Assembly: GCA_041658785.1 (NCBI GenBank)
Contig: JBAZZL010000004.1
Location: 1 to 59,899 of the forward strand
Origin: Patescibacteria group bacterium
GTDB taxonomy: Bacteria > Patescibacteriota > Patescibacteriia > Magasanikbacterales > UBA922
Reading direction: 5' to 3'
DNA: 59,899 nt
A program made the translations under genes and the position numbers. Numbering within the stretch: the first letter of the stretch is position 1; each line of letters starts with the position of its first letter. Positions 5,092 through 48,196 of this stretch are shown here, piece after piece. The notes beneath the pieces were generated by a model. It saw nothing but the letters and a program-made list of their open reading frames with translations, was not told where the DNA came from and made no database searches.

Positions 5092-5092
5092 C

Positions 5093-11621: not shown

Positions 11622-11642
11622 AACGAAGACGAACAATGTTTT

Positions 11643-11690: not shown

Positions 11691-11710
11691 CTACTATTAT
11701 AATCCTATAG

Positions 11711-14125: not shown

Positions 14126-14248
14126 GAAATCCGCACTGTCCGAGCGCGAAATTCGTCCGCCGAACCGCGGACTCATTTCGCTACTCCACATAAAATAATC
14201 AAACGCGTAAGTCATGATTACTTTAAATTTACTTCCATCATTATTCCC

Positions 14249-14313
14249 TATTTCTAATTTCCAATTTCCAATTTCTAATTTCCAATTTCTAATTTCTAAT
14301 TTCCAATTTCCAA
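14249..14313. repeat. tandem 8-nt word array (atttccaa / atttctaa)
   Basis: tatttctaatttccaatttccaatttctaatttccaatttctaatttctaatttccaatttccaat, read directly in the NYN-pnp spacer. Confidence 0.95.
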
Positions 14314-14316
14314 TCA

Positions 14317-15389: not shown

Positions 15390-16691
15390 TTAATAAATAA
15401 ACATCGCGTCTCCAAAACTATAAAATCTATAATTTTGAGAAACGGCCTCTTGGTAACATTGTAGCACAAACCGCCTATTGCCGGCAAGCGCGCTTACTAA
15501 CATCAAAAGGGTTGATTTTGGGAGGTGAAAATTGGTGATTAACGCATCAACAATTTGAAAATTGAAACCCGGGCGGATAAAAATATCTATTTCTCCAGTA
15601 TAACTCTGTAATTTGTAATTTGTAACTGGTAATTTTCCTAATTTCAAATTTCTAATTTCAAATTTCCTATCTTCATTTATTTCAACTTTATCTCTACTTA
15701 TTATTTCATTGTTACATTGTTCCATTGTTAGATTGTTAGACAATCGGCCAACCCCTTTCCTCTTTCCTCTTTCCTCTTTCCCCAAAGCCGCGATTCCTTC
15801 CAATGTCCTCACCGTCGTCGTTCCCACCGCCACCACTCGTCTCCCCTCGCTCTTTGCCCGATTGATCTTCTCCGCGTTTTCTTCGGTCAATTCAACCCAC
15901 TCGCTATGCATCACATGATCCTCTAATCTTTCGGACTTAACCGGCAAAAATGTTCCCAAACCGACATGCAAAGTTACTTCGGCAAACTCAACTCCTTTTT
16001 TCTTTAACTTCTCAATCAACTCTGGAGTAAAATGGAATCCGGCGGTCGGCGCCGCGACTGATCCTTCTCTATCATCACGCGCGTAAACCGTTTGGTAACT
16101 CTCAAGTTTAAGATTTTTATCTCCTTTAATATATGGGGGCACAGGGACAACGCCATACTTGTTCGCTTTTTTTCTGACCGTTTCTTCATCATCCGGAAAT
16201 TGCACCAAAATACTTCCGTCCGGTTCTTTTATTACCACCTCGCAATAAAACACCTCGTCCAACTCCCTCCCCTTTTTAAGGGGAGGGCGGGGGTAGGGTT
16301 GTTCGCCATCTCCAAATACCACCCTCATCCCGGGCTTGACGTGCTTGCCAGGCCTTGCCAATACTTTCCATACGCCCGGATTTCCCATCGGCCGCACGAG
16401 CAATACTTCTACCGGTTTATCCTCGCCGCGCAAAACTCGTCCATCATTCGAAACCAACGACCCAAACAAACGCGCTTTGAAAACCTTTGAATTATTCCAC
16501 ACCAACAAATCGCCCTTATCCAAATAATCAACAATATTATAAAAATGACAGTGTTCAATCGCCTCTTTCCTCTTTCCCCTTTCCGCCTTTCCTCTATCAA
16601 CAATCATCAGCCGCGAATGGTCGCGCAGACGCGTTGGTTTTTGGGCAATAAGCTCTGCTGGAAGGTGGTAATTAAAATCAGCGGTTTTCAT
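15390..16691 (-). CDS. queA: S-adenosylmethionine:tRNA ribosyltransferase-isomerase, with repeat-derived in-frame insertions
   Basis: MKTADFNYHLPAELIAQKP at the start and GDAMFIY at the end. 433 aa, against ~340-350 aa recalled for typical QueA. Confidence 0.9.
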   Translation of the reverse strand: MKTADFNYHLPAELIAQKPTRLRDHSRLMIVDRGKAERGKRKEAIEHCHFYNIVDYLDKGDLLVWNNSKVFKARLFGSLVSNDGRVLRGEDKPVEVLLVRPMGNPGVWKVLARPGKHVKPGMRVVFGDGEQPYPRPPLKKGRELDEVFYCEVVIKEPDGSILVQFPDDEETVRKKANKYGVVPVPPYIKGDKNLKLESYQTVYARDDREGSVAAPTAGFHFTPELIEKLKKKGVEFAEVTLHVGLGTFLPVKSERLEDHVMHSEWVELTEENAEKINRAKSEGRRVVAVGTTTVRTLEGIAALGKEERGKRKGVGRLSNNLTMEQCNNEIISRDKVEINEDRKFEIRNLKLGKLPVTNYKLQSYTGEIDIFIRPGFNFQIVDALITNFHLPKSTLLMLVSALAGNRRFVLQCYQEAVSQNYRFYSFGDAMFIY

Positions 16692-24244: not shown

Positions 24245-24310
24245 ATTTGCGTAGTTTAAAAAATAATGTTAGGCGTATTATAGCGCTGCGCGGCAAGAAA
24301 GTCAAACACG

Positions 24311-24358
24311 ATTATTGTTACATTGTTAAATTGTTACATTGCTACATGGCTACATTGT
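24311..24358. repeat. word array attgttacattg-type (left flank of four-helix-bundle gene)
   Basis: attattgttacattgttaaattgttacattgctacatggctacattg. Confidence 0.9.
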
Positions 24359-24362
24359 TTGT

Positions 24363-24743
24363 CTAAAACTTTAATTTTGCGTTAGTAAAAGCAATGAGGC
24401 CATTAACTTCTTTGGGGAGTTTGTTTAATTCTCCCATAATATGGTCGTACTGTTTTTGACTAATCAACCCGCGTACCTTTGCTTTCAATGTCCAATCACA
24501 GCATTCTTTAACTGAACCGTAAGTATAACGATAAAATTTTATCTTATCTTTTTTACTGTATCTGCCAAAACCTTCGGCAATGTTCGCAGAATTGGAATCA
24601 ACCGCTCTTACCCACTGTTTGCCGATCGTATCTTTGGCAAAAAAATCCCACTTTATTACAATATCCCAAACATAATTAGACAAATGAAAAGCCATCTTAT
24701 ACGCGCCAATATCATTGAGTTGAAGATATTTTTGCTCTGACAT
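24363..24743 (-). CDS. four-helix-bundle protein (23S rRNA intervening-sequence protein family)
   Basis: FKMAFHLSNYVWDIV...RAVDSNSANIAEGFGRYSKKDKIKFYRYTYGSVKEC matches the family pattern recalled from memory. Confidence 0.75.
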   Translation of the reverse strand: MSEQKYLQLNDIGAYKMAFHLSNYVWDIVIKWDFFAKDTIGKQWVRAVDSNSANIAEGFGRYSKKDKIKFYRYTYGSVKECCDWTLKAKVRGLISQKQYDHIMGELNKLPKEVNGLIAFTNAKLKF

Positions 24744-24787: not shown

Positions 24788-26863
24788 TCAAAGCTCTTCA
24801 ATCCCCTTCAAAAAACTTCTTCTTGGCTTGTCGCCATCCAACGGTTCATACCTAACTCCTTCGTCATTATTATCCAAATCAAACACATTACTCTCTCCGC
24901 CAAACCCGCTCTCGCTCACCAAATCTCTGTTAATTTCTTCTAAAAACATGCTCGGCCCCTGCGAGAAACTGGAATAACCGCCGGACAAGGGATAGGTGAG
25001 ATAGAGATATTTTTTCGCCCGCGTCAGGGCCACGTAAAACAACCTCCGCTCTTCTTCTATTCCGTCTAATTCTTTTATCGCCCGCTCGTTGGGAAACTGA
25101 CCGGCGGATAAATTTAAAATAAAAACCGCTTCCCATTCCAGCCCTTTGGCCTGATGAACCGTGGAGAGAATTATTTTTTCATTGTCCGACAGAGGCGAGG
25201 CGTGCCTCGCCTCTACGGACTCGCGGCCATAATTCTCCTGCATCGTGGCTTCGGCGAGAAACGCGGACAGATCCGACTGGCGCTCGGCAAAAAATGCTAA
25301 CTGTTCCAAATCCTGCAACCGCTCGCGATAATCCTGATATTCGTATTCCAGATATTCGGCGTATTTTGATTCCAACACCGCGCGAATCAATTCCGCCGGC
25401 GCGCCATTGGTTTTGAACATGGTTTCGTAAATCTGCAAAAAATCATTCCACCCGACCTGGGCGCGGGGCGGCAAATCAATCGCCACCCCCTCTCCTTTTA
25501 GGAGAGGGGTCAGGGGGTGAGGTGTCGGACTACCACCAACCGAACGAACCGCGTCTATAATCCTCTCCGCCGTCGCCGCCCCAATCCCCTGTTGCATATT
25601 CAACACCCGCCCCCACGCGATCGCGTCGTTTTTGTTGTTAAAAATCCGCAAATACGCCAAAACATCTTTGATGTGCGCCCGTTCAAAAAATCTGATCCCG
25701 CCGCGATAGTCATACGCGATGCCCCGCTTGGTCAATTCCATTTCCAAGGCCTGCGAATGAAAAGCGGCGCGGAACAAAACTGACATTTCTTTCAGATGCA
25801 CACCTTCGTCGCGCAATTCCAAAATTCTTTCGGCAATAAACTCGGCCTCTTCATTTTGATCCGCGAACGAACGCACTTCCGGTTTGGTAAATCTCTCTTT
25901 CATGCTTTTCAGATTTTTATCGTACTGCTTTACATTGTTGGAAATAACATCATTGGCCAAATTTAAAATATCCGGCGTTGATCGGTAATTTGTTTCTAAT
26001 CGAAAAATTTTAGCTCCCGGATATTCTTTTTCAAACGCTAAAATATTCTGAATATCGGCCGCGCGAAACGAATAAATGCTCTGGGCATCGTCGCCAACCA
26101 CCAAAATATTTTTATGTTTAGAAGCCAGCAAGCGAATAATTGACGCCTGCACCCGATTAGTATCCTGATATTCGTCAACCAGAATATATTGAAACTGATC
26201 CGCCGCTTTAGTTCGGACTTTTTCCGACTTGGCCAAAAGCAAATGCAGATTAACGAGCAGGTCGTCAAAATCCATCACATTGCCCGCGCGCTTGCGCTCG
26301 TCATAGTCCTTGGCAATCCGGCCAATGGTTTCGCCAATGTCTAACCAATTCGGATATTTCAATTCCAATACCGCCTCAATCGTCTCCTCGGCATTGCGCG
26401 CGTAACTGACAATGGACTGAATCACGCCAGCCGAAGGAAATCGCCGCTGTTTCCGGTCAATTCCTTCTTGTTTCAAACACAATTTAATCAAATCCAGACT
26501 GTCAGCGCTGTCCAAAACGGAAAAATTATTTTTGTATTGCAAAAACGGCGCGTATTTTTTTAATATCCGGTACGCGATGTGATGAAACGTGCCGGACCAG
26601 GGCAGTAGAGGCGCAAAATCTTGCGCCTCTACTGCCCTGGCCAATCGCCCCACCCGTTCAATCATCTCTCGCGCCGCTTTATTGGTGAACGTTACCAGCA
26701 AGATATTTTTTGGATCAACGCCTTTTTCAATCAAATATGCCACGCGGTAAGTGATGGCGCGCGTCTTGCCCGACCCGGCGCCGGCCAAAACTAAACACGG
26801 GCCGGCGGCGTTTTGGACGACGTTCAATTGTTCGGGGTTGAGTTCTTTGTGATAGTCAATCAT
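24788..26863 (-). CDS. UvrD/PcrA/Rep-family ATP-dependent DNA helicase
   Basis: Walker A AGAGSGKT, TFTNKAAREM, DEYQDTN, VGDDAQSIYSFR and TVHQAKGLEW motifs. 691 aa. Confidence 0.92.
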   Translation of the reverse strand: MIDYHKELNPEQLNVVQNAAGPCLVLAGAGSGKTRAITYRVAYLIEKGVDPKNILLVTFTNKAAREMIERVGRLARAVEAQDFAPLLPWSGTFHHIAYRILKKYAPFLQYKNNFSVLDSADSLDLIKLCLKQEGIDRKQRRFPSAGVIQSIVSYARNAEETIEAVLELKYPNWLDIGETIGRIAKDYDERKRAGNVMDFDDLLVNLHLLLAKSEKVRTKAADQFQYILVDEYQDTNRVQASIIRLLASKHKNILVVGDDAQSIYSFRAADIQNILAFEKEYPGAKIFRLETNYRSTPDILNLANDVISNNVKQYDKNLKSMKERFTKPEVRSFADQNEEAEFIAERILELRDEGVHLKEMSVLFRAAFHSQALEMELTKRGIAYDYRGGIRFFERAHIKDVLAYLRIFNNKNDAIAWGRVLNMQQGIGAATAERIIDAVRSVGGSPTPHPLTPLLKGEGVAIDLPPRAQVGWNDFLQIYETMFKTNGAPAELIRAVLESKYAEYLEYEYQDYRERLQDLEQLAFFAERQSDLSAFLAEATMQENYGRESVEARHASPLSDNEKIILSTVHQAKGLEWEAVFILNLSAGQFPNERAIKELDGIEEERRLFYVALTRAKKYLYLTYPLSGGYSSFSQGPSMFLEEINRDLVSESGFGGESNVFDLDNNDEGVRYEPLDGDKPRRSFLKGIEEL

Positions 26864-28530: not shown

Positions 28531-29778
28531 ATGTTTTTTGATATAACCCACAAATCATCCGACTGTCTCGCTCGTACTGGCATCATCCACACCGCGCACG
28601 GCGATATTGAGACGCCGGTTTTTATGCCGGTCGGCACGCAAGCGACAGTGAAAGCGCTGGATTCGGATGACCTCAAAAATCTTGACGCGCCAGTCATTCT
28701 CGCGAATACTTATCATTTGCACTTGCGGCCGGGCGAAAATTTAATTGCCGAACTTGGCGGACTGCATAAATTTATGAATTGGGACCGGCCGATTCTTACT
28801 GACTCCGGCGGTTTTCAAGTATTTTCACTCCAACACAAAAACATAACAACACCACAACACAACAACAATCAAAAATCTGAAATCATAAATCTGTCCCGCC
28901 GCAGCGGGACCCCGCTCGCTGCGGGGAAATCTGAAAGTGAAAGTGAACACAGCAATCTTGTAAAAATAGACAACGACGGCGTCACCTTTCACTCCCACAT
29001 CGACGGCTCCACTCACCGCTTCACCCCCGAATCCGCCATAGAAATTCAACACCAACTTGGCGCGGACATTATCATGGCCTTTGACGAATGTACGCCGGAT
29101 AATGTTTCAGAAGCAAAAGCCCGCGAGGCAATGGAACGGACGCATCAGTGGGCAGATCGTTCACTCACTTATCACCAACAAAATCTTAAATCTTCAATCT
29201 TCAATCTTCAATCACTCTTCGGCATCATCCAAGGCGCCAACTATCAAAAGCTTCGTGAAGAGTCTGCCCGCTTCATCTCCTCGCTAAACTTTGACGGCAT
29301 CGCCATCGGCGGCGAATCAGTCGGGTTTAATATGGAGGCGACTAAACAAATTCTGGACTGGGTGAACCCGATTATTCCGGAAGATAAACCCCATTACACC
29401 ATGGGCGTGGGACATTCGCCGTTGGATTTATTTGCCGTCGTGGAGCGCGGCGTGGATATGTTTGACTGCGTCTCGCCAACGAGGATGGCAAGAAACGGCG
29501 CGCTCTTTGTCCATCCAACGGTATCAAAAAAACACCGGATTGACATTACCAAATCAGAATTTAAAAAAGACGAACAGCCGATTGATCCGTCCTGCTCTTG
29601 TTCAACTTGTAAAAAATATTCCCGCGCCTATCTGAACCATCTTTTTAGCGCCAAAGAACTACTCGCTTACCGCTTGGCAACGATTCATAATGTGCATTTC
29701 TTTTTGGATTTGATGCGAGAGATTAGAAAAGCGATTAAAGAAGATAGTTTTTTGGAATTGAAGAGAAGCTGGGAATGA
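28531..29778 (+). CDS. tgt: queuine tRNA-ribosyltransferase with two repeat-derived in-frame insertions
   Basis: ARTGIIHTAHGDIETPVFMPVGT, TDSGGFQVFS, and the zinc site CSCSTCKKYSRAYLNHL. 415 aa. Confidence 0.92.
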   Translation: MFFDITHKSSDCLARTGIIHTAHGDIETPVFMPVGTQATVKALDSDDLKNLDAPVILANTYHLHLRPGENLIAELGGLHKFMNWDRPILTDSGGFQVFSLQHKNITTPQHNNNQKSEIINLSRRSGTPLAAGKSESESEHSNLVKIDNDGVTFHSHIDGSTHRFTPESAIEIQHQLGADIIMAFDECTPDNVSEAKAREAMERTHQWADRSLTYHQQNLKSSIFNLQSLFGIIQGANYQKLREESARFISSLNFDGIAIGGESVGFNMEATKQILDWVNPIIPEDKPHYTMGVGHSPLDLFAVVERGVDMFDCVSPTRMARNGALFVHPTVSKKHRIDITKSEFKKDEQPIDPSCSCSTCKKYSRAYLNHLFSAKELLAYRLATIHNVHFFLDLMREIRKAIKEDSFLELKRSWE

Positions 29779-29823
29779 TGGCTGGCGGTAGTCCGACAAG
29801 TAATCCTTCTGTTTATTAGCGCT

Positions 29824-29990
29824 GGCGGTAGCCCGACAACTCTATCTCTGTCTCTTTCCCTTATGAAGGGAAAGAGAACCCGTTAAGTAAGTTTAACTCT
29901 AATCCAATCGTAAGCCCCTTTCCCTTCGTACTTGTCCCGTCGGATACGGGAAGGGAAAGGGGTTGGGGATAGGGTTGTCGGACTACCACC
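29824..29990 (-). mobile_element. MITE-like foldback element, family 1, copy A (inverted relative to B and C)
   Basis: Termini are ggcggtagcccgacaac ... gttgtcggactaccacc. Internal hairpins are ctctttcccttatgaagggaaagag and cccctttcccttc..gaagggaaagggg. A solo terminus ggcggtagtccgacaag sits at 29784-29800. Confidence 0.8.
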
Positions 29991-30356
29991 GTCCCGGTAG
30001 ACAGAAGATAGATTATCTGGCCGCCACTCCTTATTATCCACAACCCAACCTTGTAATCTCTCCCTCTCTTTGCTAACATTCACTCCACTGGAGGTCCCAC
30101 ATGATAACAGCTTATCGGTGGGAGAGGTGGGGAGCAATCGGATGGATGTTGATTCCTCCGGATCCTTCTGATCATGAAGGGTCGCTGGTTTCAAACCGCC
30201 GACAATCCCCACCGCGGAACCGCCTCCGCTCTCATCATGATGACGTAGCCGGCCTCACTCCCGCCGCAAGGGAGAAGAGAGGCACCGGGGCCTGGACCCG
30301 GTAGGCAACACTCCGAGAGCGGAGACAGGGTAGGTGGGTGCCCTTTTTCATCCACC

Positions 30357-30450
30357 AGAGCGCGACCACACTGACCATAACATCACGTGGTCGCGCTCTC
30401 TCCTCAAATTCAATTCCACTCTTCGCGAAGAGTGGAATTTTGTTTTCTTT
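30357..30450 (+). terminator. tandem hairpins, the second followed by a T-run (plus-strand terminator)
   Basis: agagcgcgaccac..gtggtcgcgctct (30357-30399), then aattccactcttcgcgaagagtggaatt (30412-30439) + ttttgttttcttt. Confidence 0.7.
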
Positions 30451-30517
30451 CGCTTGAATAAAATCCAGTACTTTGCTAACATAATATTCCGTCACAACCC
30501 ACTAAAGGACAAGGGAA

Positions 30518-30736
30518 ATGAGAACGCCTCAAATTGTAGATCAGACCCTTGCGGTCGTGCAGTTCTTCCGGAACATAGCTCAAAGCCCTGAGATGGCGGC
30601 CTGGGCTAGGACATGGCTCCGGGCCAATGACCACCGCCTGCCCTGCCGGTTGGCGAGAAGCGCCGTCCGACGGCTCGACGGTCTGCTCCTCGGCAAGGAG
30701 ATTCGAGCGGCCTTCAACCCCGCCCGTTGGTGGTAG
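30518..30736 (+). CDS. possible 72-aa hypothetical protein in a GC-rich island
   Basis: The ORF lies between two terminator-like hairpins. There is no family match, and GC-rich DNA gives spurious ORFs on both strands here. Confidence 0.2.
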   Translation: MRTPQIVDQTLAVVQFFRNIAQSPEMAAWARTWLRANDHRLPCRLARSAVRRLDGLLLGKEIRAAFNPARWW

Positions 30737-30800
30737 CGATGGCCGTCGGGTAGCCACGACACCAGCAGTAACCAGGAGGGATTGAAATTCACGGACGAAA

Positions 30801-30875
30801 AACAAAACCGACTGGCCACTGCGCAAGTTTCTGTGGTAAACAGAAATTTACGTAGGAGTTCCAGTCGGTTTTGTT
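30801..30875. terminator. long hairpin downstream of ruvC
   Basis: aacaaaaccgactgg (30801-30815) pairs with ccagtcggttttgtt (30861-30875). T-rich sequence follows on both strands. Confidence 0.6.
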
Positions 30876-30919
30876 GTTTTCAAATTTCTTCCGTAGGTGG
30901 ACACTATCTGCCTCTGTCT

Positions 30920-31426
30920 TTAACGCACGCCGCGCATTCTCAAACTCGCTCCGCCGGTTAGCGCCGCGGCCAAAGCGTCGGCCGCGTCGTCTTGGAGCGA
31001 AGCGCATTTTAGATGCAAAATCACTTTCACCATTTTTTGCATCTGTCCTTTCTCGGCTCGGCCATAGCCGGTCATGGCCTGCTTGACCTGCAGAGGAGTG
31101 AATTCGTCAATCGGCATGCCCGCTTGAGACAGCGTCAGCAAAATCACGCCCCGCGCCTGCCCCACTTTCATGGCGGTCTTTACATTTTTGAAAAAAAACA
31201 AATCCTCCACCGCGGCGCGATCCGGATGATATTTTTTTATTATTTTGTTCAGCTCCCGGTGCAATTCCGCGAGCCGATCAGTAAACGGCTCCCCCGCGCC
31301 GGTTTCAATACAGCCATGGGCGACATGAATCCAGTCGCCATTCTGTTTTTCAATCACGCCCCAACCGATACGACCGAAGCCCGGGTCAATGCCAATGATA
31401 CGTACTTTCTGTGAATTTGCGCTCAT
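30920..31426 (-). CDS. ruvC: crossover junction endodeoxyribonuclease RuvC
   Basis: IIGIDPGFGRIGWGVIE, and EDLFFFKNVKTAMKVGQARGV. 168 aa. Confidence 0.9.
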   Translation of the reverse strand: MSANSQKVRIIGIDPGFGRIGWGVIEKQNGDWIHVAHGCIETGAGEPFTDRLAELHRELNKIIKKYHPDRAAVEDLFFFKNVKTAMKVGQARGVILLTLSQAGMPIDEFTPLQVKQAMTGYGRAEKGQMQKMVKVILHLKCASLQDDAADALAAALTGGASLRMRGVR

Positions 31427-31446
31427 AATTTATCGCCCACTGCATA

Positions 31447-31604
31447 AATTCACCTAATTAACCTAATTGTCTAATTCACCCATTCGGCTTCGCTCAGGGC
31501 AAGCTCTAATAAAATATCAAATGTCTAATAACAAAATCTCTCTTGGGGTTTAGTTATTAGAAATTTTTTAGGTGAATTAGGTGAATTAGAAATTAGGTGA
31601 ATTT
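31447..31604. repeat. foldback: cacctaatt-word arm, 88-nt core, inverted aattaggtg-word arm
   Basis: aattcacctaattaacctaattgtctaattcaccc (31447-31481) pairs with aggtgaattaggtgaattagaaattaggtgaattt (31570-31604). Confidence 0.9.
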
Positions 31605-33540: not shown

Positions 33541-34710
33541 ATGAAATCCACTCCCTCAAAACTAATCCTAAAAAACAAAACCCAATTCCCCGGCTACTCC
33601 CCGTCGTGGCAGACCGACTGGTATTCCGGCGAAGTCGTTTTCACTACCGGCATGACCGGTTATGTGGAGACGCTCACCGATCCGTCTTACGCCGGGCAGA
33701 TCATCGTCTTCACTTATCCGCTGATCGGCAACTATGGCGTCCCTGCCGTAAAGACGCCCCGTTGGGGCGTCTCTGGCGCCCGTTGGGGCGTCTCTCGTCA
33801 TGGCATCTCCGGCTGGGAGTCAAACAAAATCCACGCCGCCGGCGTCGTCGTCTCCGAAGCGTGCGAGAATTGGAGCCACGCGGACGGAAAATTGTCATTG
33901 CTGGAATGGTTAAAAGAGCAGAAAGTGCCAATTATTACCGGCGTAGACACACGGGCGTTGACGAAGATGTTGAGAGAATATGGAGTGATGCTTGGAGCGA
34001 TTAACACGAGGCACGAGGCACGTAACACGAGACACGAAACACGAAACACGAAACTGGAAACAATTGTCCGATTACCAATTACTAATTATAAATTCATTGA
34101 TCCAAATAAAAAAAACCTTGTAGCAAAAGTATCCTGCAAAAAAAAGAAAACCTACGGCAAGGGCAAAAAAATCATTTTCGCCGTTGACTGCGGCATGAAG
34201 GAAAGTATTATGCGGGAATTAAAAAAGTTTGACCTGACGATTCACCGCGTGCCGTATAATTATGATTATACCAAGGAGAAGTTTGACGGCGTCGTATTGT
34301 CCAACGGTCCCGGAGATCCGATGATGGCGAACGAAACGATTGAGATTTTGAAACGGGCGATGAAATTCAAAAAACCGATCTTTGGCATCTGTCTCGGTTC
34401 ACAACTGATGGGTCTCGCGGCCGGAGCAAAAACCTACAAACTGCCATACGGACATCGCGGGCAGAACCAGCCGGTAATTGAAACCGCGACCAAACGCTGT
34501 TATATCACCAGTCAAAATCACGGTTATGCTGTTAACGAAAAATCATTGCCGCGCGATTGGCGGGTAAATTTTCGCAATCTGAACGACGGCTCGGTGGAAG
34601 GCGTGGCGCATAAACGCCTGCCGTTTTTTTCGGTACAGTTTCATCCGGAAGCGGCGCCGGGGCCTACTGATACGGCTCGGTTGTTTAGACAATTTTATGA
34701 ATTGTTGTAA
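33541..34710 (+). CDS. carA: carbamoyl-phosphate synthase small (glutaminase) subunit, with two repeat-derived insertions
   Basis: [22 protein letters not shown], catalytic GICLGSQLM, and VQFHPEA. Confidence 0.92.
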
Positions 34711-34724: not shown

Positions 34725-34888
34725 GCAGCCCGACAACCCTATCCCCAACCCCTTTCCCTTCCCGTATCCGACGGGACAAGTACGAAGGGAAAGGGGCTAA
34801 CGATTGAATTTAAGTTAACCTTACTTTATTTGGTTCTCCTTCCCTTCATAAGGGAAGGAGACAGAGGTAGGGTTGTCGGGCTACCGCC
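34725..34888 (+). mobile_element. MITE-like foldback element, family 1, copy B (carA-carB junction)
   Basis: gcagcccgacaaccctatcccc ... ggtagggttgtcgggctaccgcc. Internal hairpins are cccctttcccttc..gaagggaaagggg and ctccttcccttcataagggaaggag. Confidence 0.85.
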
Positions 34889-34899
34889 AACCAGAGCTT

Positions 34900-37800
34900 A
34901 TGTCACAACGCAACACACAACCCCGCACTGTCTTAATCTTAGGTTCAGGTGGACTAAGAATCGGCCAAGCCGGCGAGTTTGACTATTCCGGCTCTCAAGC
35001 CATAAAAGCTTTGAAAGAAGAAGGAATAAAAACCGTCCTGATCAATCCCAACATCGCCACAGTCCAGACCGATCCGACAATGGCCAACACGGTTTATCTC
35101 CAGCCGTTGAATTTTGACATTGTCAGCAAAATTATTGCCCAGGAAAAACCGGATGGCCTGCTTTTGAGCTTTGGCGGGCAGACGGCGCTTAATTTAGGAT
35201 TGGAATTGGCAGAAAAGGGAGTATTGAAAAAATATCAAGTGGCGGTAGTGGGAACGCCGGTGCAGGCGATTAGAATTACTGAAGACAGGGATTTGTTCAA
35301 AAAAGAGCTGAACAAAATTGAAGTCAAAACGCCGAAGAGTGAAGCAGTAAAGACTGTCGCCGATGCTCTCCGCGCGGCGAAAAAAATCGGTTATCCCGTG
35401 ATGATGCGTTCAGGATTTTCTTTGGGCGGATTGGGCAGCGGAGTGGTGCGCGAGGAAAAAGAACTAAAGAAAAAAGCCGGCGAGGCCCTAAGCACTGTAC
35501 CGCAAATTTTGATTGAAGAATATTTAGGCGGGTGGAAAGAAGTGGAATATGAAGTGGTGAGGGACGGCGCTGACAACTGCATTACGGTTTGCAACATGGA
35601 AAATTTTGACCCGATGGGCATTCATACTGGCGAGAGCATTGTGGTGGCGCCTTCGCAGACCTTAAATAATCATGAGTATCATTTATTGCGCGAAGTAAGC
35701 ATCAAAATCGCCCGGCAAATTGGCATTATCGGCGAGTGCAATGTGCAGTTTGCGCTAAATCCAGAGAACAGTGATTATCGGGTAATAGAAATGAATGCCC
35801 GACTTTCCCGTTCCAGCGCCTTGGCTTCCAAAGCTACTGGCTATCCGCTCGCCTTTGTCGCGGCCAAGCTGGCTCTGGGCAAGCGTCTGGATGAACTGAA
35901 AAATGCGGTGACCCAAAAAACCTCGGCCTTTTTTGAACCAGCTCTGGATTACCTAGCGCTAAAAATTCCGCGCTGGGACACGCATAAATTAAAAACCGCC
36001 GAACGCTTTATCGGCACGGAAATGAAAAGCGTCGGCGAGGTGATGGCGATCGGCCGCTCGTTTCCCGAGGTTTTGCAAAAAGCGGTGCGGATGCTGAACC
36101 ACGGCATGACCGGAGTGCATGATTATCCGTATAAAATAAATAATATCAAAGACGAAATCGCCCGGCCGACCGACCGGCGGCTGTACGCGTTGTATAAGTT
36201 TTTTTCTGCCGGCGGTTCGGTGAACGAGGCGCATAAACTGTCCGCGATTGACCCGTGGTTTTTGCATCATATTAAAAGAATCGCAGAGGTGGAGAAATTG
36301 GAAATTAGAAACTGGAAATTAGAAACTGGAAACAAGTTACAAGTTACAAGTTACAAGTTACAAAAAGCCAAACAATTCGGCTTCTCCGACCGCGCTATCG
36401 CGACTATCGTTGGCACCGACGAAGAGGCCATTAGAACCCAACGGCTTAAAGCGGGAATCAAGCCGGTCGTAAAACAAATTGACACTCTCGCCGGCGAATT
36501 TCCGGCGCAAACGAATTATCTTTATCTGACTTATCATGGAACGAAGAATGACTTAAAACCGAGCGCGAAAAAGCCGATCGTGGTTCTCGGCTCCGGACCA
36601 TATTCAATCGGTTCGTCCGTGGAATTTGATTGGTCGGCGGTAAATACCGCGAGAACATTAAGAAAACACCATGAACAAACTATCATTATCAATTCCAATC
36701 CCGAAACCGTTTCCACGGATTATGATGAATCCAATCGGCTGTATTTTGAAGAACTGACTTTGGAACGGGTGCGAGACATCGCTGATTTTGAAAAAACCAA
36801 AGGCATCATTGTCTCGGTCGGCGGACAGATTGCCAACTCGCTCGCCATGCCGCTTTATAAATCGGGCTACAAAATTTTAGGAACATCGCCCGAAGATATC
36901 GACCGGGCCGAAGATCGGGCAAAATTTTCTTCTTTGCTTAATGAATTAAAAATTGACCAGCCGGAATGGGAAGAGGCTTCCACGATTGACAAAGCAAAAA
37001 AATTCGCGGATCGGGTGGGGTATCCGATATTAGTTCGTCCCTCGTATGTTCTCTCCGGCGCGGCCATGAACGTGGTTTATGATGAAGAAACATTAAAAAA
37101 ATATCTGACCGACGCGGCCACGGTTTCGCCGGATCATCCGGTCGTGATTTCGCGATTTTTGACCGGCGCCAAGGAGCTCGAAATTGACGGCGTGGCCGAG
37201 AAAGGAGAAATCAAAATCGAAGTCATGAGCGAACATGTAGAAAATGCCGGCGTGCATTCGGGCGACGCGACCATTGTTGTTCCGCCGCAACGGTTATACC
37301 TAGAAACCATTCGTCGCGCCAAAAGATTGGCAAGAAAAATCGTCCGCGCGCTGAATATCACCGGCCCGTTCAACATCCAATTTTTGGCCAAAGAAAATTG
37401 GTTGAAAATCATTGAATGCAATCTGCGCGCCTCTCGTTCTTTTCCGTTTGTTTCCAAAGTTACCGGATATAATCTGATAGAAATCGCCACAAAAATTTTA
37501 CTCGGCCAGCATCGCCCCGCCCAATACCACACCATGGAACTTGACTACGTCGGCGTCAAAACGCCTCAATTCTCTTATAGCCGCCTCAAAGGCGCGGATC
37601 CGGTGGCGCAAGTGGAAATGGCCTCCACCGGCGAAGTGGCCTGCATCGGCGATGATTATCTGGAAGCGTTCATGCTCTCGTGGCTCGCGACCGAACAGAC
37701 AGTCAAAGGCAAAAATATCCTGCTCTCCATTGGCAGAGAAAATAAAAACAAATTATTTGAATGGATTCAAAAGCTGGACGAAAAGGGTTGGAATATCTAT

Positions 37801-38118
37801 GCCACGGAAAACACCCACCGCTATCTCACCGAGCGCGGGGTCGGGTGTGAGTTTGTCCACAAAATCAGCGACCTATCTTCGCCGCATGTCGGCGACCTGA
37901 TTGAAGAGCGAAAAGTTGATTTGATCATCAATATCCCCCGCGGGCAGGGAAACGACTCCGACACCGACGGCTACAAAATCCGCCGCCTCGCGATTGACTA
38001 CCACATTCCTCTCATCACCAACCTCCAAATCGCGCGGTTATTTTTGCAGTGTTTGGTGGAACTAGACGTGAGTAAGCTGGAAGTGAAGGCGAGGGGGGAG
38101 TATAATGGTACGCGATAG
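34900..38118 (+). CDS. carB: carbamoyl-phosphate synthase large subunit
   Basis: Start set at MSQRNTQPRTVLILGSGGLRIGQAGEFDYSG, because the longer ORF begins inside the MITE. It has two ATP-grasp halves and an MGS-like C-terminus. Confidence 0.93.
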   Translation: MSQRNTQPRTVLILGSGGLRIGQAGEFDYSGSQAIKALKEEGIKTVLINPNIATVQTDPTMANTVYLQPLNFDIVSKIIAQEKPDGLLLSFGGQTALNLGLELAEKGVLKKYQVAVVGTPVQAIRITEDRDLFKKELNKIEVKTPKSEAVKTVADALRAAKKIGYPVMMRSGFSLGGLGSGVVREEKELKKKAGEALSTVPQILIEEYLGGWKEVEYEVVRDGADNCITVCNMENFDPMGIHTGESIVVAPSQTLNNHEYHLLREVSIKIARQIGIIGECNVQFALNPENSDYRVIEMNARLSRSSALASKATGYPLAFVAAKLALGKRLDELKNAVTQKTSAFFEPALDYLALKIPRWDTHKLKTAERFIGTEMKSVGEVMAIGRSFPEVLQKAVRMLNHGMTGVHDYPYKINNIKDEIARPTDRRLYALYKFFSAGGSVNEAHKLSAIDPWFLHHIKRIAEVEKLEIRNWKLETGNKLQVTSYKLQKAKQFGFSDRAIATIVGTDEEAIRTQRLKAGIKPVVKQIDTLAGEFPAQTNYLYLTYHGTKNDLKPSAKKPIVVLGSGPYSIGSSVEFDWSAVNTARTLRKHHEQTIIINSNPETVSTDYDESNRLYFEELTLERVRDIADFEKTKGIIVSVGGQIANSLAMPLYKSGYKILGTSPEDIDRAEDRAKFSSLLNELKIDQPEWEEASTIDKAKKFADRVGYPILVRPSYVLSGAAMNVVYDEETLKKYLTDAATVSPDHPVVISRFLTGAKELEIDGVAEKGEIKIEVMSEHVENAGVHSGDATIVVPPQRLYLETIRRAKRLARKIVRALNITGPFNIQFLAKENWLKIIECNLRASRSFPFVSKVTGYNLIEIATKILLGQHRPAQYHTMELDYVGVKTPQFSYSRLKGADPVAQVEMASTGEVACIGDDYLEAFMLSWLATEQTVKGKNILLSIGRENKNKLFEWIQKLDEKGWNIYATENTHRYLTERGVGCEFVHKISDLSSPHVGDLIEERKVDLIINIPRGQGNDSDTDGYKIRRLAIDYHIPLITNLQIARLFLQCLVELDVSKLEVKARGEYNGTR

Positions 38119-38132
38119 TCATTCCGAGCGTA

Positions 38133-38152
38133 GTCCCGATTCGCATCGGGAC
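38133..38152. repeat. REP-like hairpin gtcccgattcgcatcgggac (copy 2)
   Basis: Identical to the copy at 14106-14125. It is embedded in gtcattccgagcg...ccgaggaatccc just after the carB stop. Confidence 0.9.
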
Positions 38153-38263
38153 GGAACCGAGGAATCCCTTAACGAGTGAACGCGCAAAAGAGAGGTAAAT
38201 TGAGATAAGATGGAGATAATGTTGAGATAAGTAGAGTTAGGTGAAAGGGTAAAAAATTTATTT

Positions 38264-38812
38264 ATGTTAGAACAATCTCATAACCATAGAGAAATCACAC
38301 CGAATTTTCTTAGCAAAGTGTCTGAGCTTGCCGAGCAAAGAATACACGAACTTTTTGAAATTGCCAAAGGCCTCGGCGTTGAAATTTTTTCTTTAAAAGA
38401 GAGTAAACAAAAAATTTTGGAACAAGTTAGAGATGGTCTGCCTCAGCGCTATGAACTTGTTGTGCAGAAACTTCAAGAGGAAGGATTAAGTCTAGAAGAT
38501 TTGTCCAAGGAAGTATTGCTCGACCGTATGCTCGGAATTGACATTCTTTTTAGATACAAAGGAAAAAATTATGCTATTGATGTTACTACTGGTAAACATA
38601 CTGTGGTAAAGAATAAACAGAAAAAATTTCAAAAAATGGAAAAAGTGTACAGACAGCTCGGTATCGACCATGCTCTGGTTATCCGACTCAAGGAAGCGGT
38701 TACGGAAGATATTGTTTTAGATCTATTCTCCAGACTAGAAAACATGGATGAAACTCAAAACACCTTCTCTATAGTTATGCGATATCCTGAAACAAAGCGA
38801 AAAAGAAAGTGA
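38264..38812 (+). CDS. hypothetical protein inserted between carB and pyrB
   Basis: 182-aa ORF. No family recognised. GIDILFRYKGKNYAIDVTTGK could be a nuclease-like D...D-x-K motif, which is speculative. Confidence 0.5.
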   Translation: MLEQSHNHREITPNFLSKVSELAEQRIHELFEIAKGLGVEIFSLKESKQKILEQVRDGLPQRYELVVQKLQEEGLSLEDLSKEVLLDRMLGIDILFRYKGKNYAIDVTTGKHTVVKNKQKKFQKMEKVYRQLGIDHALVIRLKEAVTEDIVLDLFSRLENMDETQNTFSIVMRYPETKRKRK

Positions 38813-38852
38813 CAAAAAACGAAGATAAAATTTTTACTCCATCACATAACTA

Positions 38853-39146
38853 ATGGGAAATAGCATTATGAAAAATAATAATAAACAAATCGCCATTTAT
38901 CAGTCGCCAAACGGAGCGGTAGAGGTTCGTGTTGATGTGAATAAAGAAACGATTTTTTTGACCCAGCAACAAGTGAGCGAGCTTTTTAATGTGCAAAAAG
39001 CGGCTATTTCCAAACACGCCAAAAAAATTTTTGACACCGGTGAATTAGACAAAAAATCAACCGTTTCCATTTTGGAAACAGTTCAAACCGAAGGAATTGG
39101 ACAGATCAAATTATCTTTTCAAAAAGACCGGCGAGCGAAAAGTTAA
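38853..39146 (+). pseudogene. truncated RhuM-family (virulence-protein-like) gene remnant
   Basis: IAIYQSPNGAVEVRVDVNKETIFLTQQQVSELFNVQKAAISKHAKKIFDTGEL matches the conserved RhuM N-terminus as I recall it. The ORF stops after ~97 aa, whereas I recall full-length members as much longer. Confidence 0.5.
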
Positions 39147-40708: not shown

Positions 40709-41980
40709 ATGCGGATAAAATTTTGGGACAATAAAATACTCAATCTGGATTTGCCGGCGGAATTGTTCGGAAGCAATTTAATTGCCCTGCCGGCGCTGGT
40801 TGATCCGCATGTCCATTTTCGCATGCCTGGAGGAGAAAACAAAGAAGATTGGCAGACAGCGGCGCAGGCGGCGATTGCCGGCGGTGTTACCACGGTTTTT
40901 GACATGCCGAATAATACCCCCGCGATCGTTGACGAGAAGGCTTTGTTGGACAAAAAGAAATTGATTGACAGCCAATTGGCGGAGGCCGAGATACCTTTGC
41001 GTTATCATTTGTATTTTGGCGCTACGCCGGACAATTTGGACGAAATTGAGAAAGTAAAAAATCAGATTATCGGCATAAAATTATTCATGGGGTCCAGCAC
41101 TGGCGATCTGTTGGTTGATAAAAAAGAGGATCAGGAGAGAGTGTTTAAAAAAGCGGCGGAATTGAATTTACTCGTTGCGGTGCACGCGGAAGATGAAGAG
41201 TGTATACGGGAGAGTGTTGAAAGATCAAAAGGCTTGTCCCGAGTAGAACCGAGGGATCAGAAGATCAAAAGATCAGACGGTAAAATCGCACCCGCTAAAC
41301 TTCATTCTAAAATAAGATCAAGAGAGGCGGCGGTGAAAGCCGTTACTCAAGCGCTTGGATTGGCGAGAAAATATGCAACAAAATTGTATATTTTGCATGT
41401 CAGCGCCAAAGAGGAGCTTAATTTAATCCGGCAGGCAAAAAATGATGGCATTAACGTTTACGCCGAGGCCACGCCCCACCATCTCATTTTGAACGAAAAC
41501 GATTACGCGCGCCTCGGAACCAAAGCGCAGATGAATCCGCCGCTCCGGACCAAAGCCGATAATGACGCTTTGTGGCAGGCGATAAAAGATGGTACAATTG
41601 ACACCGTCGGCACGGACCACGCGCCGCATACTTTGGCGGAGAAAAATCTGCCTTACGGCCAGGCGCCGTCCGGCGTGCCGGGGATTGAAAATTATTTGGC
41701 AATACTCCTAAATGCGCATCATGAAGGAAAAATTACTTTGGAAAAAATTGTTGAGCTGACTCACGATAATCCGCAGAAAATTTTTGGACTTGAGGCAAAT
41801 GATGATTTGGTAATCGTTGATCTTGACAAAACTAGAGTAGTGAGAGATGGAGAGCAGAAAACGAAATGCAAGTGGTCGCCGTATGCGGGGATGATGCTAC
41901 GGGGGTGGGCGGTGGCGGTGGTTTTGCGGGGCAGGGTGTATGGCGGTAGCCCGACAACCCTATCCCTCCACCTCCGCTGA
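40709..41980 (+). CDS. pyrC: dihydroorotase; the last ~13 codons and the stop are supplied by MITE copy C
   Basis: DPHVHFRMPG, VHAEDE and GTDHAPH metal-binding motifs. The C-terminal ...GGSPTTLSLHLR is read from the element terminus ggcggtagcccgacaaccctatcc. Confidence 0.9.
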   Translation: MRIKFWDNKILNLDLPAELFGSNLIALPALVDPHVHFRMPGGENKEDWQTAAQAAIAGGVTTVFDMPNNTPAIVDEKALLDKKKLIDSQLAEAEIPLRYHLYFGATPDNLDEIEKVKNQIIGIKLFMGSSTGDLLVDKKEDQERVFKKAAELNLLVAVHAEDEECIRESVERSKGLSRVEPRDQKIKRSDGKIAPAKLHSKIRSREAAVKAVTQALGLARKYATKLYILHVSAKEELNLIRQAKNDGINVYAEATPHHLILNENDYARLGTKAQMNPPLRTKADNDALWQAIKDGTIDTVGTDHAPHTLAEKNLPYGQAPSGVPGIENYLAILLNAHHEGKITLEKIVELTHDNPQKIFGLEANDDLVIVDLDKTRVVRDGEQKTKCKWSPYAGMMLRGWAVAVVLRGRVYGGSPTTLSLHLR

Positions 41981-42135
41981 CGCTGCGGCGGACAAGCAAC
42001 CCCTTTTTCTTCCCATACCCGATGGAGTAAGTAAAAAAGGAAAGGGGCATACGATTGAATTTAAGTTAAACTTTCTTAAAGGGTTCTCCTCCCCCCGTAA
42101 GGGGAGGAGACAGAGGTAGGGTTGTCCGGACTACC
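41942..42135 (+). mobile_element. MITE-like foldback element, family 1, copy C (pyrC / OTC-like junction)
   Basis: ggcggtagcccgacaaccctatcc ... ggtagggttgtccggactacc. It shares the acgattgaatttaagttaa core with copy B. Confidence 0.85.
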
Positions 42136-42163
42136 TCTACCTTTTTCTTTTACTTCAACTATT

Positions 42164-43111
42164 ATGCGCCACCTAATCTCGCTCAAAGAACAATCCAAAG
42201 AAGACCTTCTCGCCATACTGGATTTGGCCAAAAAAATAAAAGCCAAAAGAAAGGCCGGCGAGCTGACGAACTATTTGCCAAACAAAACTTTGATAATGTT
42301 ATTTCAAAAAACATCTACCCGCACGCGATTGTCGTTTGAGGCGGGCATGACCGAATTGGGAGGACACGCGATTTTTTTGGACGCGAAGACGACGCAATTT
42401 TCGCTGACGGATTTTAAAGACGAAATTCAGGCGGTGATGCGCTACGGGCAGGCGCTGATGTTTCGCGCGAAAAAAGCGGCGGATGTGGAATTGGCGGCGG
42501 CGTTAAATAAAATACCAGTCATTGACGCGTGCAGTGAAAAATATCATCCGGCCCAGGCCTTGAGTGATTTGCTAACCATGTCGGAGCATTCGGGCGGGAT
42601 TGAAAAAATAAAAAAGATCGCCTGGCTGGGAATTGAAAATAATGTTTCCAATACTTTGATGCTCGCTTGCGCTAAGCTGGGAATCAAAGTAGCGATTGCC
42701 GCGGCCGAGGTTGACAGGGACAGCGTTGACGCGGATCTGAACCGGCAGGCGGAGGCGACCGGAAATGTTACGCGGACGCAAAATCTGGCCGAGGCGCTGT
42801 CCGGCGCCGATTATGTGCATACGGATACGTGGATGAATATGGAATTTTTTGATCAGGGAAAAGTGAGGCCGGAATTTCAACCGGAATATGAACGGCGCAA
42901 GAAAACGTTTATGCCGTTTCAGTTGAACGCGGCGATAATCAATCAACACTGCCCGCAAGCGAAAATAATGCACTGCATGCCCTGCCATGTCGGCTATGAA
43001 ATTTCCCGCGACGCGATTGATCACCCCAATTCAATTATTTTTGATCAGGCGGAGAATAGGATGCATGGGCAGAAGGGGATTATTATGTGGTTGTTGGAAA
43101 AAGGAGTGTGA
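42164..43111 (+). CDS. ornithine-carbamoyltransferase-family protein (atypical substrate motif)
   Basis: [18 protein letters not shown] and HCMPCH resemble OTCase. HTDTWMNME stands where I recall OTCases having D-x-W-x-S-M-G. Start set at MRHLISL, because the longer ORF begins inside the MITE. Confidence 0.75.
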   Translation: MRHLISLKEQSKEDLLAILDLAKKIKAKRKAGELTNYLPNKTLIMLFQKTSTRTRLSFEAGMTELGGHAIFLDAKTTQFSLTDFKDEIQAVMRYGQALMFRAKKAADVELAAALNKIPVIDACSEKYHPAQALSDLLTMSEHSGGIEKIKKIAWLGIENNVSNTLMLACAKLGIKVAIAAAEVDRDSVDADLNRQAEATGNVTRTQNLAEALSGADYVHTDTWMNMEFFDQGKVRPEFQPEYERRKKTFMPFQLNAAIINQHCPQAKIMHCMPCHVGYEISRDAIDHPNSIIFDQAENRMHGQKGIIMWLLEKGV

Positions 43112-43156: not shown

Positions 43157-43268
43157 AATTCACCTAATTTCCAATTCACCTAATTCACCTAATAAAATGT
43201 CCAATTTCTAATTTTTTAATTTGACATTTTATTAGGTGAATTAGACAATTAGGTGAATTAGGTGAATT
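43157..43268. repeat. 112-nt foldback made of cacctaatt words (45-nt arms)
   Basis: aattcacctaatttccaattcacctaattcacctaataaaatgtc pairs with gacattttattaggtgaattagacaattaggtgaattaggtgaatt. Confidence 0.92.
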
Positions 43269-43279
43269 TTAAAAGACCT

Positions 43280-44207: not shown

Positions 44208-44395
44208 GAATTAAGTTGAACGCTGCTAAACCGAAAGGATGCCAGACCCACGCACCTCAACCCCCCGCCCCTTCTCCTTGAAGGAGAAGGGGAGACCGCC
44301 AGCGAGAGGTTTTAGTTCCCCTTCCCCTTTTAGGGGAAGGGGACAGGGGATGAGGTGCGCGGGCAGTACCATAGAAACGAACTATGGCTACCTCT
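44208..44395 (+). repeat. foldback element, family 2, copy D
   Basis: taagttgaacgctgctaaaccgaaaggatgccagacccacgcacctcaacccc, hairpins ccccttctccttgaaggagaagggg and ccccttccccttttaggggaagggg, then ggggatgaggtgcgcggg. Confidence 0.85.
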
Positions 44396-44416
44396 ATCAG
44401 GGAGTACAAACAGTTG

Positions 44417-44598
44417 ATTAACGCCCGGGCGCAAACGTTGCGTAAAAAACAAACACCGGCGGAAGCAAAACTTTGGCCATACCTGCGGGGCCGGAAATTC
44501 GTTTGACAGATATGGAGTACAGTGTCTTGAGATTCAAAAACAAAGAAGTAATGGAAAACATTGACGAAGTTTTGGAGAAAATAAAAAACCAAGGTTGA
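44417..44598 (+). pseudogene. DUF559-type endonuclease remnant (N- and C-terminal pieces in different frames, core deleted)
   Basis: Frame A reads INARAQTLRKKQTPAEAKLWPYLRGRKFV*. Frame B reads DMEYSVLRFKNKEVMENIDEVLEKIKNQG*. Both match the conserved ends of DUF559 proteins as I recall them. Confidence 0.65.
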
Positions 44599-44605
44599 TG
44601 CGTTT

Positions 44606-44795
44606 AAGTTGGACGTTGCTAAAACAAAAGGACGTCAGACCCACGCACCTCATCCCTAACCCTTCTCCTTGAAGGAGAAGGGAAGCGATTGACGAGTTTT
44701 TTCGTCTCCCCTTCTCCTCAAAGGAGAAGGGGCCGGGGGGATGAGGTGCGTTGGCGCCACCATACAAACGAATTACCAATGCCTCCCTCAGGCAG
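44606..44795 (+). repeat. foldback element, family 2, copy E (direct repeat of D)
   Basis: taagttggacgttgctaaaacaaaaggacgtcagacccacgcacctcatccc, hairpins cccttctccttgaaggagaaggg and ccccttctcctcaaaggagaagggg, then ggggatgaggtgcgttgg. Confidence 0.85.
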
Positions 44796-44827
44796 CACAA
44801 ACAGACAACACAAACAATCTCTTTATT

Positions 44828-45661: not shown

Positions 45662-45750
45662 ACAAAATTAGACGAAATTAAACAAAATTAAACAAAATTG
45701 GACAGAATTAATTTTGTATAATTTTTTGTAATTTTGTTTAATTTATTTTC
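45661..45750. repeat. five phased 10-mers (aacaaaatta-type) followed by their inverted copies
   Basis: aacaaaatta gacgaaatta aacaaaatta aacaaaattg gacagaatta, then attttgtata attttttgta attttgttta. Confidence 0.9.
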
Positions 45751-45760
45751 GCATGTTTCT

Positions 45761-48186: not shown

Positions 48187-48196
48187 AATGATTTGT

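Follow-up and report, generated by a model that had tools for sequence, protein, structure and literature searches.

A probable non-autonomous, REPIN-like foldback repeat at operon junctions and within housekeeping genes of Patescibacteria

Introduction

Repetitive extragenic palindromic (REP) sequences that carry a GTAG tag form head-to-head dimers with the tags on the outside, and heterodimers with conserved spacers (PMC3733652). They lie next to the 3′ ends of open reading frames (ORFs), with in-frame copies in uvrD-type and tRNA-modification genes (PMC3733652). Correia elements, another described system, have inverted repeats at which RNase III cleaves them (PMC10969869). Here we describe a foldback element from a Patescibacteria group bacterium, found in a 59,899-nt stretch of DNA (the window; GenBank assembly GCA_041658785.1, contig JBAZZL010000004.1, positions 1 to 59,899), in which three full copies, c1, c2 and c3, are spaced within 12.3 kb. 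The genomes of Patescibacteria, or the Candidate Phyla Radiation (CPR), are small, gene-dense and usually described as repeat-poor.

An initial annotation, made from the letters alone, had called the element MITE-like, after the miniature transposable elements that bear inverted repeats (MITEs). The term holds loosely, for a dispersed non-coding foldback repeat, but not in the strict sense, as no target-site duplication was seen at ten copies; a REPIN-like inverted pair fits better (REP and REPIN are used here as defined in PMC3733652 and PMC3337134). With a probability of roughly 80%, we consider the element to be a non-autonomous, non-coding interspersed repeat, that is, selfish mobile DNA, of a narrow Patescibacteria/CPR group. 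The family is previously undescribed; it is selfish DNA of a familiar sort that happens to occupy an unusual host, and does not constitute a new type of system. Although it behaves like a REPIN, it is not filed as one, since the distance between tag and stem is off and no RAYT (REP-associated tyrosine transposase) gene was found in the material scanned.

Anatomy of the repeat

A covariance model was built from ten full copies and then run over the window, where it scored c1 at 163 bits (29823-29990, minus strand, inverted relative to the other two), c2 at 159 bits (34725-34889, plus strand, at the carA/carB junction) and c3 at 133 bits (41941-42139, plus strand, between pyrC and an ATCase/OTCase-like gene). 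Sequence inspection and repeat detection place the three copies where the initial annotation had put them, to within a few bases. Identity is 91% between c1 and c2, whereas c3 stands at ~80%. The parts that had been proposed as shared were all found: inverted termini, 20-26 nt long (TGGCGGTAGYCCGACAACCCTA / TAGGGTTGTCGGRCTACCGCCA); two hairpins per copy, each with pyrimidines in the 5′ arm and purines in the 3′ arm (CCCYTTYCC/GGRAARGGG); and the conserved core (ACGATTGAATTTAAGTTA; ACGATTGRATTTAAGTTA). The terminus pattern occurs six times in the window against 0.55 expected by chance, and hairpins with pyrimidine and purine arms occur in nine places against zero in shuffles.

On the plus strand, c1 comprises a terminus (29823-29846), hairpin 2 (29851-29877), an extended hairpin 1 (~29914-29962) and the other terminus (29966-29990). 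c2 runs from its left terminus (34725-34744), the outer 5 nt of which are gone, through hairpin 1 (34749-34796), the core (34797-34834) and hairpin 2 (34835-34861) to the right terminus (34866-34889). In c3, an additional ~30-nt hairpin is inserted at 41966-41996, and hairpin 2 lies at 42085-42110. The extension of hairpin 1 is common to c1, c2 and c3 and missing from copies in other genomes, which is what amplification within one genome would produce.

The left half of the element can be aligned to its right half, revealing an inverted pair of two related half-units (55-70 nt each) joined by a conserved spacer of ~38 nt, the core. In each half-unit, a GGTAG tag on the outside is combined with a terminus of ~20 nt (CCCGACAACCCTAYC) and a hairpin of 11-12 bp. 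The outer ends read GGTAG...CTACC in most copies, with GTGG, GTGA, GTAA, GTAT and GCAG as variants, and inverted termini of 20-26 nt are present in 10/10 full copies. Copy length ranges from 146 to 199 nt, and the consensus has stops in all six frames and thus no coding capacity.

Copies in other genomes and empty sites

About eight further loci, on other Patescibacteria contigs, carry the element between unrelated genes and in both orientations. Full copies come from independent assemblies (JGI Ga0265292/Ga0265296, NCBI metagenome-assembled genome (MAG) SO_2017_GW3_51 and ENA ERZ27247322), and identity across five such assemblies is 77-90%. Outside the window, the full copies are of a shorter, 146-nt form. 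They lie at 20-161 of locus L041 (the same as L101, from SO_2017_GW3_51), 2901-3047 of L099, 14080-14226 of L102 (= L097), 3205-3360 of L103, 12936-13080 of L105, 5341-5535 of L108 and 5598-5745 of L109 (= L110). L105 also has a composite copy (3230-3490), and a symmetric dimer of two right halves at 3271-3487. The L108 copy carries an insert at the internal site used by the c3 insert; both inserts are placed after CCCTATCC. Every full copy is intergenic, and seven of the ten sit 10-35 nt upstream of a start codon. The neighbors of the outside copies include trpE|trpG, metF|metH, a giant ORF|gap and an IS110 transposase.

The last of these is an IS110-family gene (domains DEDD_Tnp_IS110 and Transposase_20) at L041 475-1458, 313 nt from the copy. 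IS110 relatives often target palindromic repeats, which may account for this neighbor.

Three metagenome contigs terminate in or at a copy (L097 1-104, L102 14080-14241 and L114 1737-1833), which suggests that the element breaks short-read assemblies. A scan of a genome collection with the bare terminus pattern gave 92 matches, nearly all due to chance, the genuine ones being L041, with its full copy, and L073, with a half-unit inside an ORF. Metagenome-scan matches L100, L104, L106, L112 and L113 were likewise discarded as chance, with L104 adjoining adapter sequence. Neither viral contigs nor plasmids nor phage records contained a match to the element, and a protein-database search with a padded query from its longest open frame found no spurious ORFs over other copies. 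Literature searches returned nothing relevant on such repeats in CPR/Patescibacteria. In more distant CPR sequences, hairpins of the CCCCTT/AAGGGG type occur without the termini; an intergenic region of L116 (3860-3990) contains two of them.

Junctions without the element are found in relatives. In L099, the element splits trpE from trpG, whereas in relatives with TrpE 80% and 71% identical the two genes overlap by ATGA and hold no element. In the closest pyr operons (L094 and L095), carA and carB are separated by 111 and 5 nt, pyrC leads straight into pyrD, and the model has no match. Comparison of L114 with L099 (TrpE 94% identical) shows that L114 has an extra solo terminus plus TGGCGC ahead of the full element, a 38-nt terminus duplication in an otherwise shared site. 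Further copies between unrelated genes, and empty sites at orthologous junctions (trpE/trpG, carA-carB), are thus both on record; the initial annotation had held that if both were lacking, and covariation with them, the element would be only a local duplication. Target-site duplications, which it had also proposed to look for, did not appear: at the borders of ten copies, including the young pair c1/c2, direct repeats are lacking at every length, as is a clear target motif. For the window's own junctions, the databases hold no orthologues in close relatives, the best CarA matches (67% identical) being from Doudnabacteria, Magasanikbacteria and other Patescibacteria.

Contig L108, a JGI contig, shares with the window just a 311-nt recombinase fragment. 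Specifically, a tyrosine-recombinase gene whose 3′ end occupies window 3-351 matches L108 1-311 there at 95.8% DNA identity, and synteny stops directly after the gene.

Further family members in the window

The initial count of three copies stands for full family-1 elements, but the window holds more relatives, namely two family-2 copies, two half-units inside ORFs and a second decayed terminus beside c1, for a tally of three full family-1, two family-2 and four partial copies. The family-2 pair lies on the plus strand at 44241-44370 (61.5 bits, E 1e-16 to 1e-18) and 44634-44762 (44-48 bits), with an overall model range of 44-61 bits (E about 1e-11 to 1e-18). Its parts follow the family-1 order (terminus, hairpin, spacer, hairpin, terminus), with a shorter spacer. 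Because of this shared order and the covariance-model matches, we treat families 1 and 2 as one superfamily.

Together with ~50-70 nt of shared flanks per side, the family-2 copies form a ~392-nt direct repeat (44211-44804) between pyrD and pyrK, enclosing a broken DUF559 (Vsr-like endonuclease) gene at 44383-44598. A link between DUF559 and the element was dropped, as no DUF559 counterpart stands beside any other copy.

The solo terminus reported at the tgt end was found at 29783-29800 and continues in decayed form to 29814 (plus strand, right-end type TGGCGGTAGTCCGACAAGTAATCCTTCTGTTT, 5 nt past the tgt stop). Alignment to the terminus consensus revealed a second decayed terminus on the other side of c1 (29996-30030, minus strand), with 0/2000 shuffles scoring as high. 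Since the two are inverted relative to each other, c1 is nested between the two ends of an older copy. The layout of a solo terminus, 6-8 nt and a full element recurs at c1, L105 and L114.

Two half-units are read in frame within housekeeping genes. One, a GGTAG terminus plus hairpin at 25487-25537 (minus strand), lies in the uvrD/pcrA helicase gene and encodes VGGSPTPHPLTPLLKGEGVA; the other, a truncated terminus plus hairpin at 16265-16306 (minus strand), lies in queA and encodes ...EQPYPRPPLKKGRE.... The queA half-unit constitutes an 18-codon insertion (...GEQPYPRPPLKKGRELDEV...), which neither the nearest homologue (65% identity) nor the Thermotoga structure PDB 1vky has. Half-units inside ORFs also occur in three ORFs on other contigs (L073, L098/L111 and L107). 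One of the CCCCTT/AAGGGG hairpins without termini is found in a QueA homologue, P0245, as an NPPTPFSKGG insertion at a site different from that in the window queA.

Folding and covariation

The fold of each copy is a closed three-way junction with an outer stem of 22-26 bp, at -81 to -92 kcal/mol and with z-scores of -4.9 to -9.7 versus shuffles; its strength is about equal on either strand, in line with the closed stem with two arms predicted in the initial annotation. Mismatches in the two outer termini arise independently, without covariation between the ends. By comparison, hairpin 2 shows compensatory substitutions plus a compensated indel in c1, c3, L103 and L105. In the covariation check proposed at the outset, overall covariation is weak, with five pairs changing on both sides, a count reached by 6/500 shuffles.

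The initial annotation had also offered, as an equal alternative, a transcribed structured RNA element, for which there is little support. Relative to transcription, five copies point forward and five in reverse, with a ratio of 4:3 among copies ≤35 nt from a start codon, while pairing departures of the G-U and A-C kinds are about equal in number (15 versus 11); both observations argue against a strand-specific RNA function. Rfam 15 gave no match at gathering score in the window, and none at E≤1 for 29700-31000. No intrinsic terminator (G+C-rich hairpin with a T-run) and no sigma-70 -35/-10 hexamers occur inside c1, c2 or c3. Given their position within the pyr operon, c2 and c3 must form part of its transcript. 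Their outer stem, once transcribed, would be long enough for an RNase III substrate, and cleavage of the pyr transcript at these stems is predicted by analogy with the Correia elements.

Gene context and annotation

Gene order was taken from Pfam scans and from an independently assembled version of the same contig (L001). tgt (28531-29778) is followed by c1 and then by ruvC and yebC on the opposite strand; the pyr operon reads carA (33541-34710), c2, carB, pyrB, pyrI, pyrC (from 40709), c3, the ATCase/OTCase-like gene, pyrD and pyrK. Placement of all copies at gene junctions, as first described, is right for the positions after tgt, between carA and carB, and between pyrC and the ATCase/OTCase-like gene, but c3 also overlaps the end of the pyrC frame. 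This frame enters c3 and stops inside it at 41978-41980, giving the C-terminus ...VYGGSPTTLSLHLR*. Alignment of PyrC with two relatives indicates that the final two or three codons and the stop were lost and replaced by c3 sequence.

The false 5′ extensions suspected for carB and the ATCase/OTCase-like gene are genuine. Artefactual read-through ORFs start inside the elements, at TTG 34873 (carB) and TTG 42122 (ATCase/OTCase-like gene), whereas the true starts are ATG 34900 and ATG 42164, respectively. In the 30 nt upstream of 23 window starts, leaders are AT-rich and almost no gene has a Shine-Dalgarno-like motif; next to start codons with such leaders, a self-contained fold is likely tolerated.

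Relative to the closest pyr operons (L094 and L095), the window operon has three extra genes, all with repeats at their borders: two ORFs without a Pfam match after carB (region 38264-39146), and a second ATCase/OTCase-fold gene in the pyrC-pyrD interval (42164-43111).

Other features of the window

Two more short palindromic repeat families are present, one of ~100 nt (46430-46529) and one of ~65 nt (38113-38180), both 86-94% identical to copies in the same JGI contigs that bear the foldback element. The ~65-nt repeat runs across the carB stop codon (38116-38118), and the ~100-nt repeat is located between pyrE and pyrF. At 11638-11694 and 26592-26646 there are two long palindromes, each having a perfect stem of ~20-24 bp, one intergenic and the other in frame in uvrD (CCAGGGCAGTAGAGGCGCAA...TTGCGCCTCTACTGCCCTGG), also with GTAG/CTAC. 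Inverted ~100-nt repeats (48196-48295 and 49295-49404; 71 nt at 94% plus 28 nt at 100%) flank a miaA-like gene at 48303-49259.

Tandem repeats of 7-10 nt fill many intergenic regions and are also found in frame inside genes (2537-2662, 14242-14316, 15633-15745, 24306-24367, 31446-31603, 34022-34092, 36294-36364, 43157-43269, 45337-45402 and 45658-45757). Versus its 67%-identical homologue, carA has gained 13 and 16 residues in frame, and low-complexity insertions are likewise present in tgt and queA. Between c1 and ruvC lies an 870-nt, ORF-free, G+C-rich region (30031-30900) whose fold is far stronger than that of shuffles on both strands (z about -8). Rfam gave no match to it at E≤1, and neither the rest of the window nor the fetched loci contain a second copy. 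A large structured RNA and an accumulation of decayed palindromes are both candidate explanations; a decayed transposase gene was rejected for this region, given the lack of Pfam or Rfam signal and the non-coding appearance of its ORFs.

The 23S rRNA gene (4736-8947, minus strand) measures 4212 nt versus a 2925-nt model, corresponding to an insertion of about 1.3 kb that contains a LAGLIDADG homing-endonuclease ORF (5741-6310). Such 23S rRNA insertions with a LAGLIDADG ORF are common in CPR; taken with the CarA matches of no more than 67% identity, this one marks the source as a divergent member of the CPR. The 5S gene follows at 4547-4653, with no adjacent 16S gene in the window.

Discussion

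The reading that we prefer is that of a non-autonomous interspersed repeat. Copies of the element have inserted at many unrelated places, and the surviving ones occupy positions that a compact genome can bear: gene ends or the few codons next to them, sites 10-35 nt upstream of a following start codon, or, for in-frame half-units, surface-tolerant parts of proteins. Movement would be in trans, through an enzyme whose gene presumably lies in another part of the genome. Tentatively, and at somewhat less than even odds, we favor a tyrosine transposase of the single-strand HUH/Y1 kind (RAYT or TIRYT, IS200/IS605-like), not a DDE transposase, in view of the GTAG-type tags, the hairpins in subterminal position, the solo half-units, the lack of target-site duplications and the nesting beside old termini. 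If mRNA processing or stability is affected at all, this would be incidental and would not explain why the family exists.

Several points weigh against this reading. No mobilizing enzyme was identified: the initial annotation had seen no transposase in the window, and transposase domains (Y1 included) are indeed absent from all 34 window proteins scanned, and a scan for HUH/RAYT motifs over ~170 kb of related CPR contigs gave one chance match, in a non-coding frame. The GTAG tag lies 20-25 nt from the hairpin, not adjacent as in canonical REPs, and the half-units measure 55-70 nt, not 20-40 nt. The closest relatives of the window genome are 55-70% identical in protein, such that c1-c3 have no exact filled/empty pair; a target-site duplication of 1-3 bp could have decayed unseen; and the copy counts derive from one 60-kb window plus scattered contigs, not whole genomes. 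Furthermore, the compensatory changes in hairpin 2, and a core more conserved than a neutral spacer should be, leave room for some selected function of the element, on DNA or RNA.

A classical MITE would have arisen from a DDE-type insertion sequence by internal deletion; it would move by cut-and-paste via its 20-26-bp terminal inverted repeats and leave duplications too short or too decayed to see. Such an origin agrees with long termini on a small element without coding capacity, with dispersed copies at filled and empty sites, and with a size and placement like those of Correia and ERIC elements (PMC10969869); independent mismatches at the two ends are also expected if each end is a protein-binding site. 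Yet ten copies, even the young pair, lack a target-site duplication, no insertion sequence with these termini occurs in the window or any fetched locus, and the solo half-units and symmetric right/right dimer (L105 3271-3487) suit a REP-like unit better, leaving a MITE unlikely. The element might instead be a functional RNA module of operon transcripts, selected as a processing site, 3′-end stabilizer or translational insulator in a genome without Shine-Dalgarno motifs, where a self-contained fold beside a start codon could matter. c2 and c3 are necessarily co-transcribed with the pyr operon, and their folds are very stable. The outer stem (22-26 bp) is of RNase III length, as in the Correia elements that RNase III cuts (PMC10969869), and both the compensated changes of hairpin 2 and a core conserved across genomes would be in keeping with selection on RNA. 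We nevertheless regard this module as quite improbable, for the orientation is evenly split (5:5, or 4:3 near start codons), the same operons work in relatives with 5-nt or overlapping junctions and no element, and further copies are read in frame in proteins, precede a gene in divergent orientation or are nested within older ones; the near-equal G-U and A-C counts (15 and 11), the weak covariation (five pairs, 6/500 shuffles) and the lack of an Rfam match point the same way.

A site-specific recombination site marking gene-cassette boundaries, either integron attC-like or a target of IS110 or a tyrosine recombinase, is very improbable, although the elements do stand at gene junctions and extra pyr-operon genes lie beside them (the ATCase/OTCase-like gene after c3, and two ORFs after carB), with an IS110 transposase 313 nt from the L041 copy and a tyrosine-recombinase fragment at window 3-314. 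No integrase is adjacent, and most copies divide conserved housekeeping genes (carA|carB, trpE|trpG), not cassettes. The attC version was rejected on this gene context, on the high identity between copies (80-91%, unlike attC sites) and on the mismatch of GTTGTCG to the attC core GTTRRRY. Finally, a local duplication or assembly artefact with no wider family, which the clustering of three copies within 12.3 kb might have suggested, has a negligible chance of being right, given 77-90% identical copies in unrelated gene contexts of five independent assemblies and the independent assembly of the same contig (L001).

A stronger version of the non-autonomous repeat, which we hold to be distinctly unlikely, would make it the first system of the CPR to resemble REPINs or Rickettsia palindromic elements (RPEs), with an enzyme or mechanism of mobilization so far unconnected with such repeats, co-option as a self-folding RNase III/insulator module, or both. 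New copies might then enter at the foot of a resident hairpin, thereby generating the solo terminus, 6-8 nt and full element layout; and, under co-option, the module may have let coupled junctions (ATGA in trpE/trpG, 5 nt in carA/carB) be split in genomes that initiate without Shine-Dalgarno motifs.

The interest of the repeat lies mainly in its host, in its invasion of a tight operon and several housekeeping proteins, and in the consequences for annotation and assembly. Every pyrimidine-operon junction that is tight in relatives holds some repeat in the window genome, and pieces of one repeat family stand in frame in queA, in uvrD and at the pyrC end. The element is a possible source of protein insertions and operon remodeling. 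False starts (carB, the ATCase/OTCase-like gene), altered C-termini and contig breaks (L097, L102, L114) are its effects on annotation. Should the mobilizing enzyme prove to be a RAYT-type protein, the known RAYT range would extend to a new superphylum.

Comparison with known systems places the element among several. With the Correia (NEMIS, Neisseria) and ERIC (enterobacteria) elements it shares a length of ~100-170 nt with ~26-bp inverted termini, a location in transcribed intergenic DNA near genes in both orientations, size variants by insertion at fixed internal sites (here, c3 and L108) and a long stem as a possible RNase III substrate. Those elements, however, have TA target-site duplications, for which there is no counterpart at our copies, and c1-c3 contain no outward promoter; the sequence families and hosts are unrelated. 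RPEs are similar as ~100-150-nt palindromic repeats of a small, compact genome, found between genes and in frame in conserved proteins, to which they add short peptide loops. Here, the likeness drawn is one of description, and there is no taxonomic link; moreover, in-gene copies of our element are half-units only (~54 nt, 18 codons), whereas all full units are intergenic. IS200/IS605-derived palindrome-associated (PATE-type) elements can also be compared. They resemble the element in subterminal hairpins, the lack of target-site duplications and probable single-strand mobilization, but have asymmetric ends without long terminal inverted repeats, whereas our element is symmetric.

REPINs are a close match, with reservations. 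The tag-stem interval is 20-25 nt, forming a long terminal inverted repeat, versus 0-2 nt in REPs; the 11-12-bp stem falls within the REP range (6-13 bp), but the units are 55-70 nt versus 20-40 nt; no RAYT gene was found among the 34 window proteins or ~170 kb of related contigs; and the Patescibacteria lie outside the phyla reported for REPINs. Shared features are: (i) outer GTAG-type tags of comparable degeneracy (GTGG, GTGA, GTAA), (ii) two related inverted units with different stems (a heterodimer) around a conserved spacer (~38 nt here, 20-100 nt in REPINs), foldable as one large hairpin, and (iii) solo units, no target-site duplication and copies close to ORF 3′ ends. As in the REPIN systems, intragenic in-frame copies of the element occur in uvrD-type and tRNA-modification genes, here uvrD and queA.

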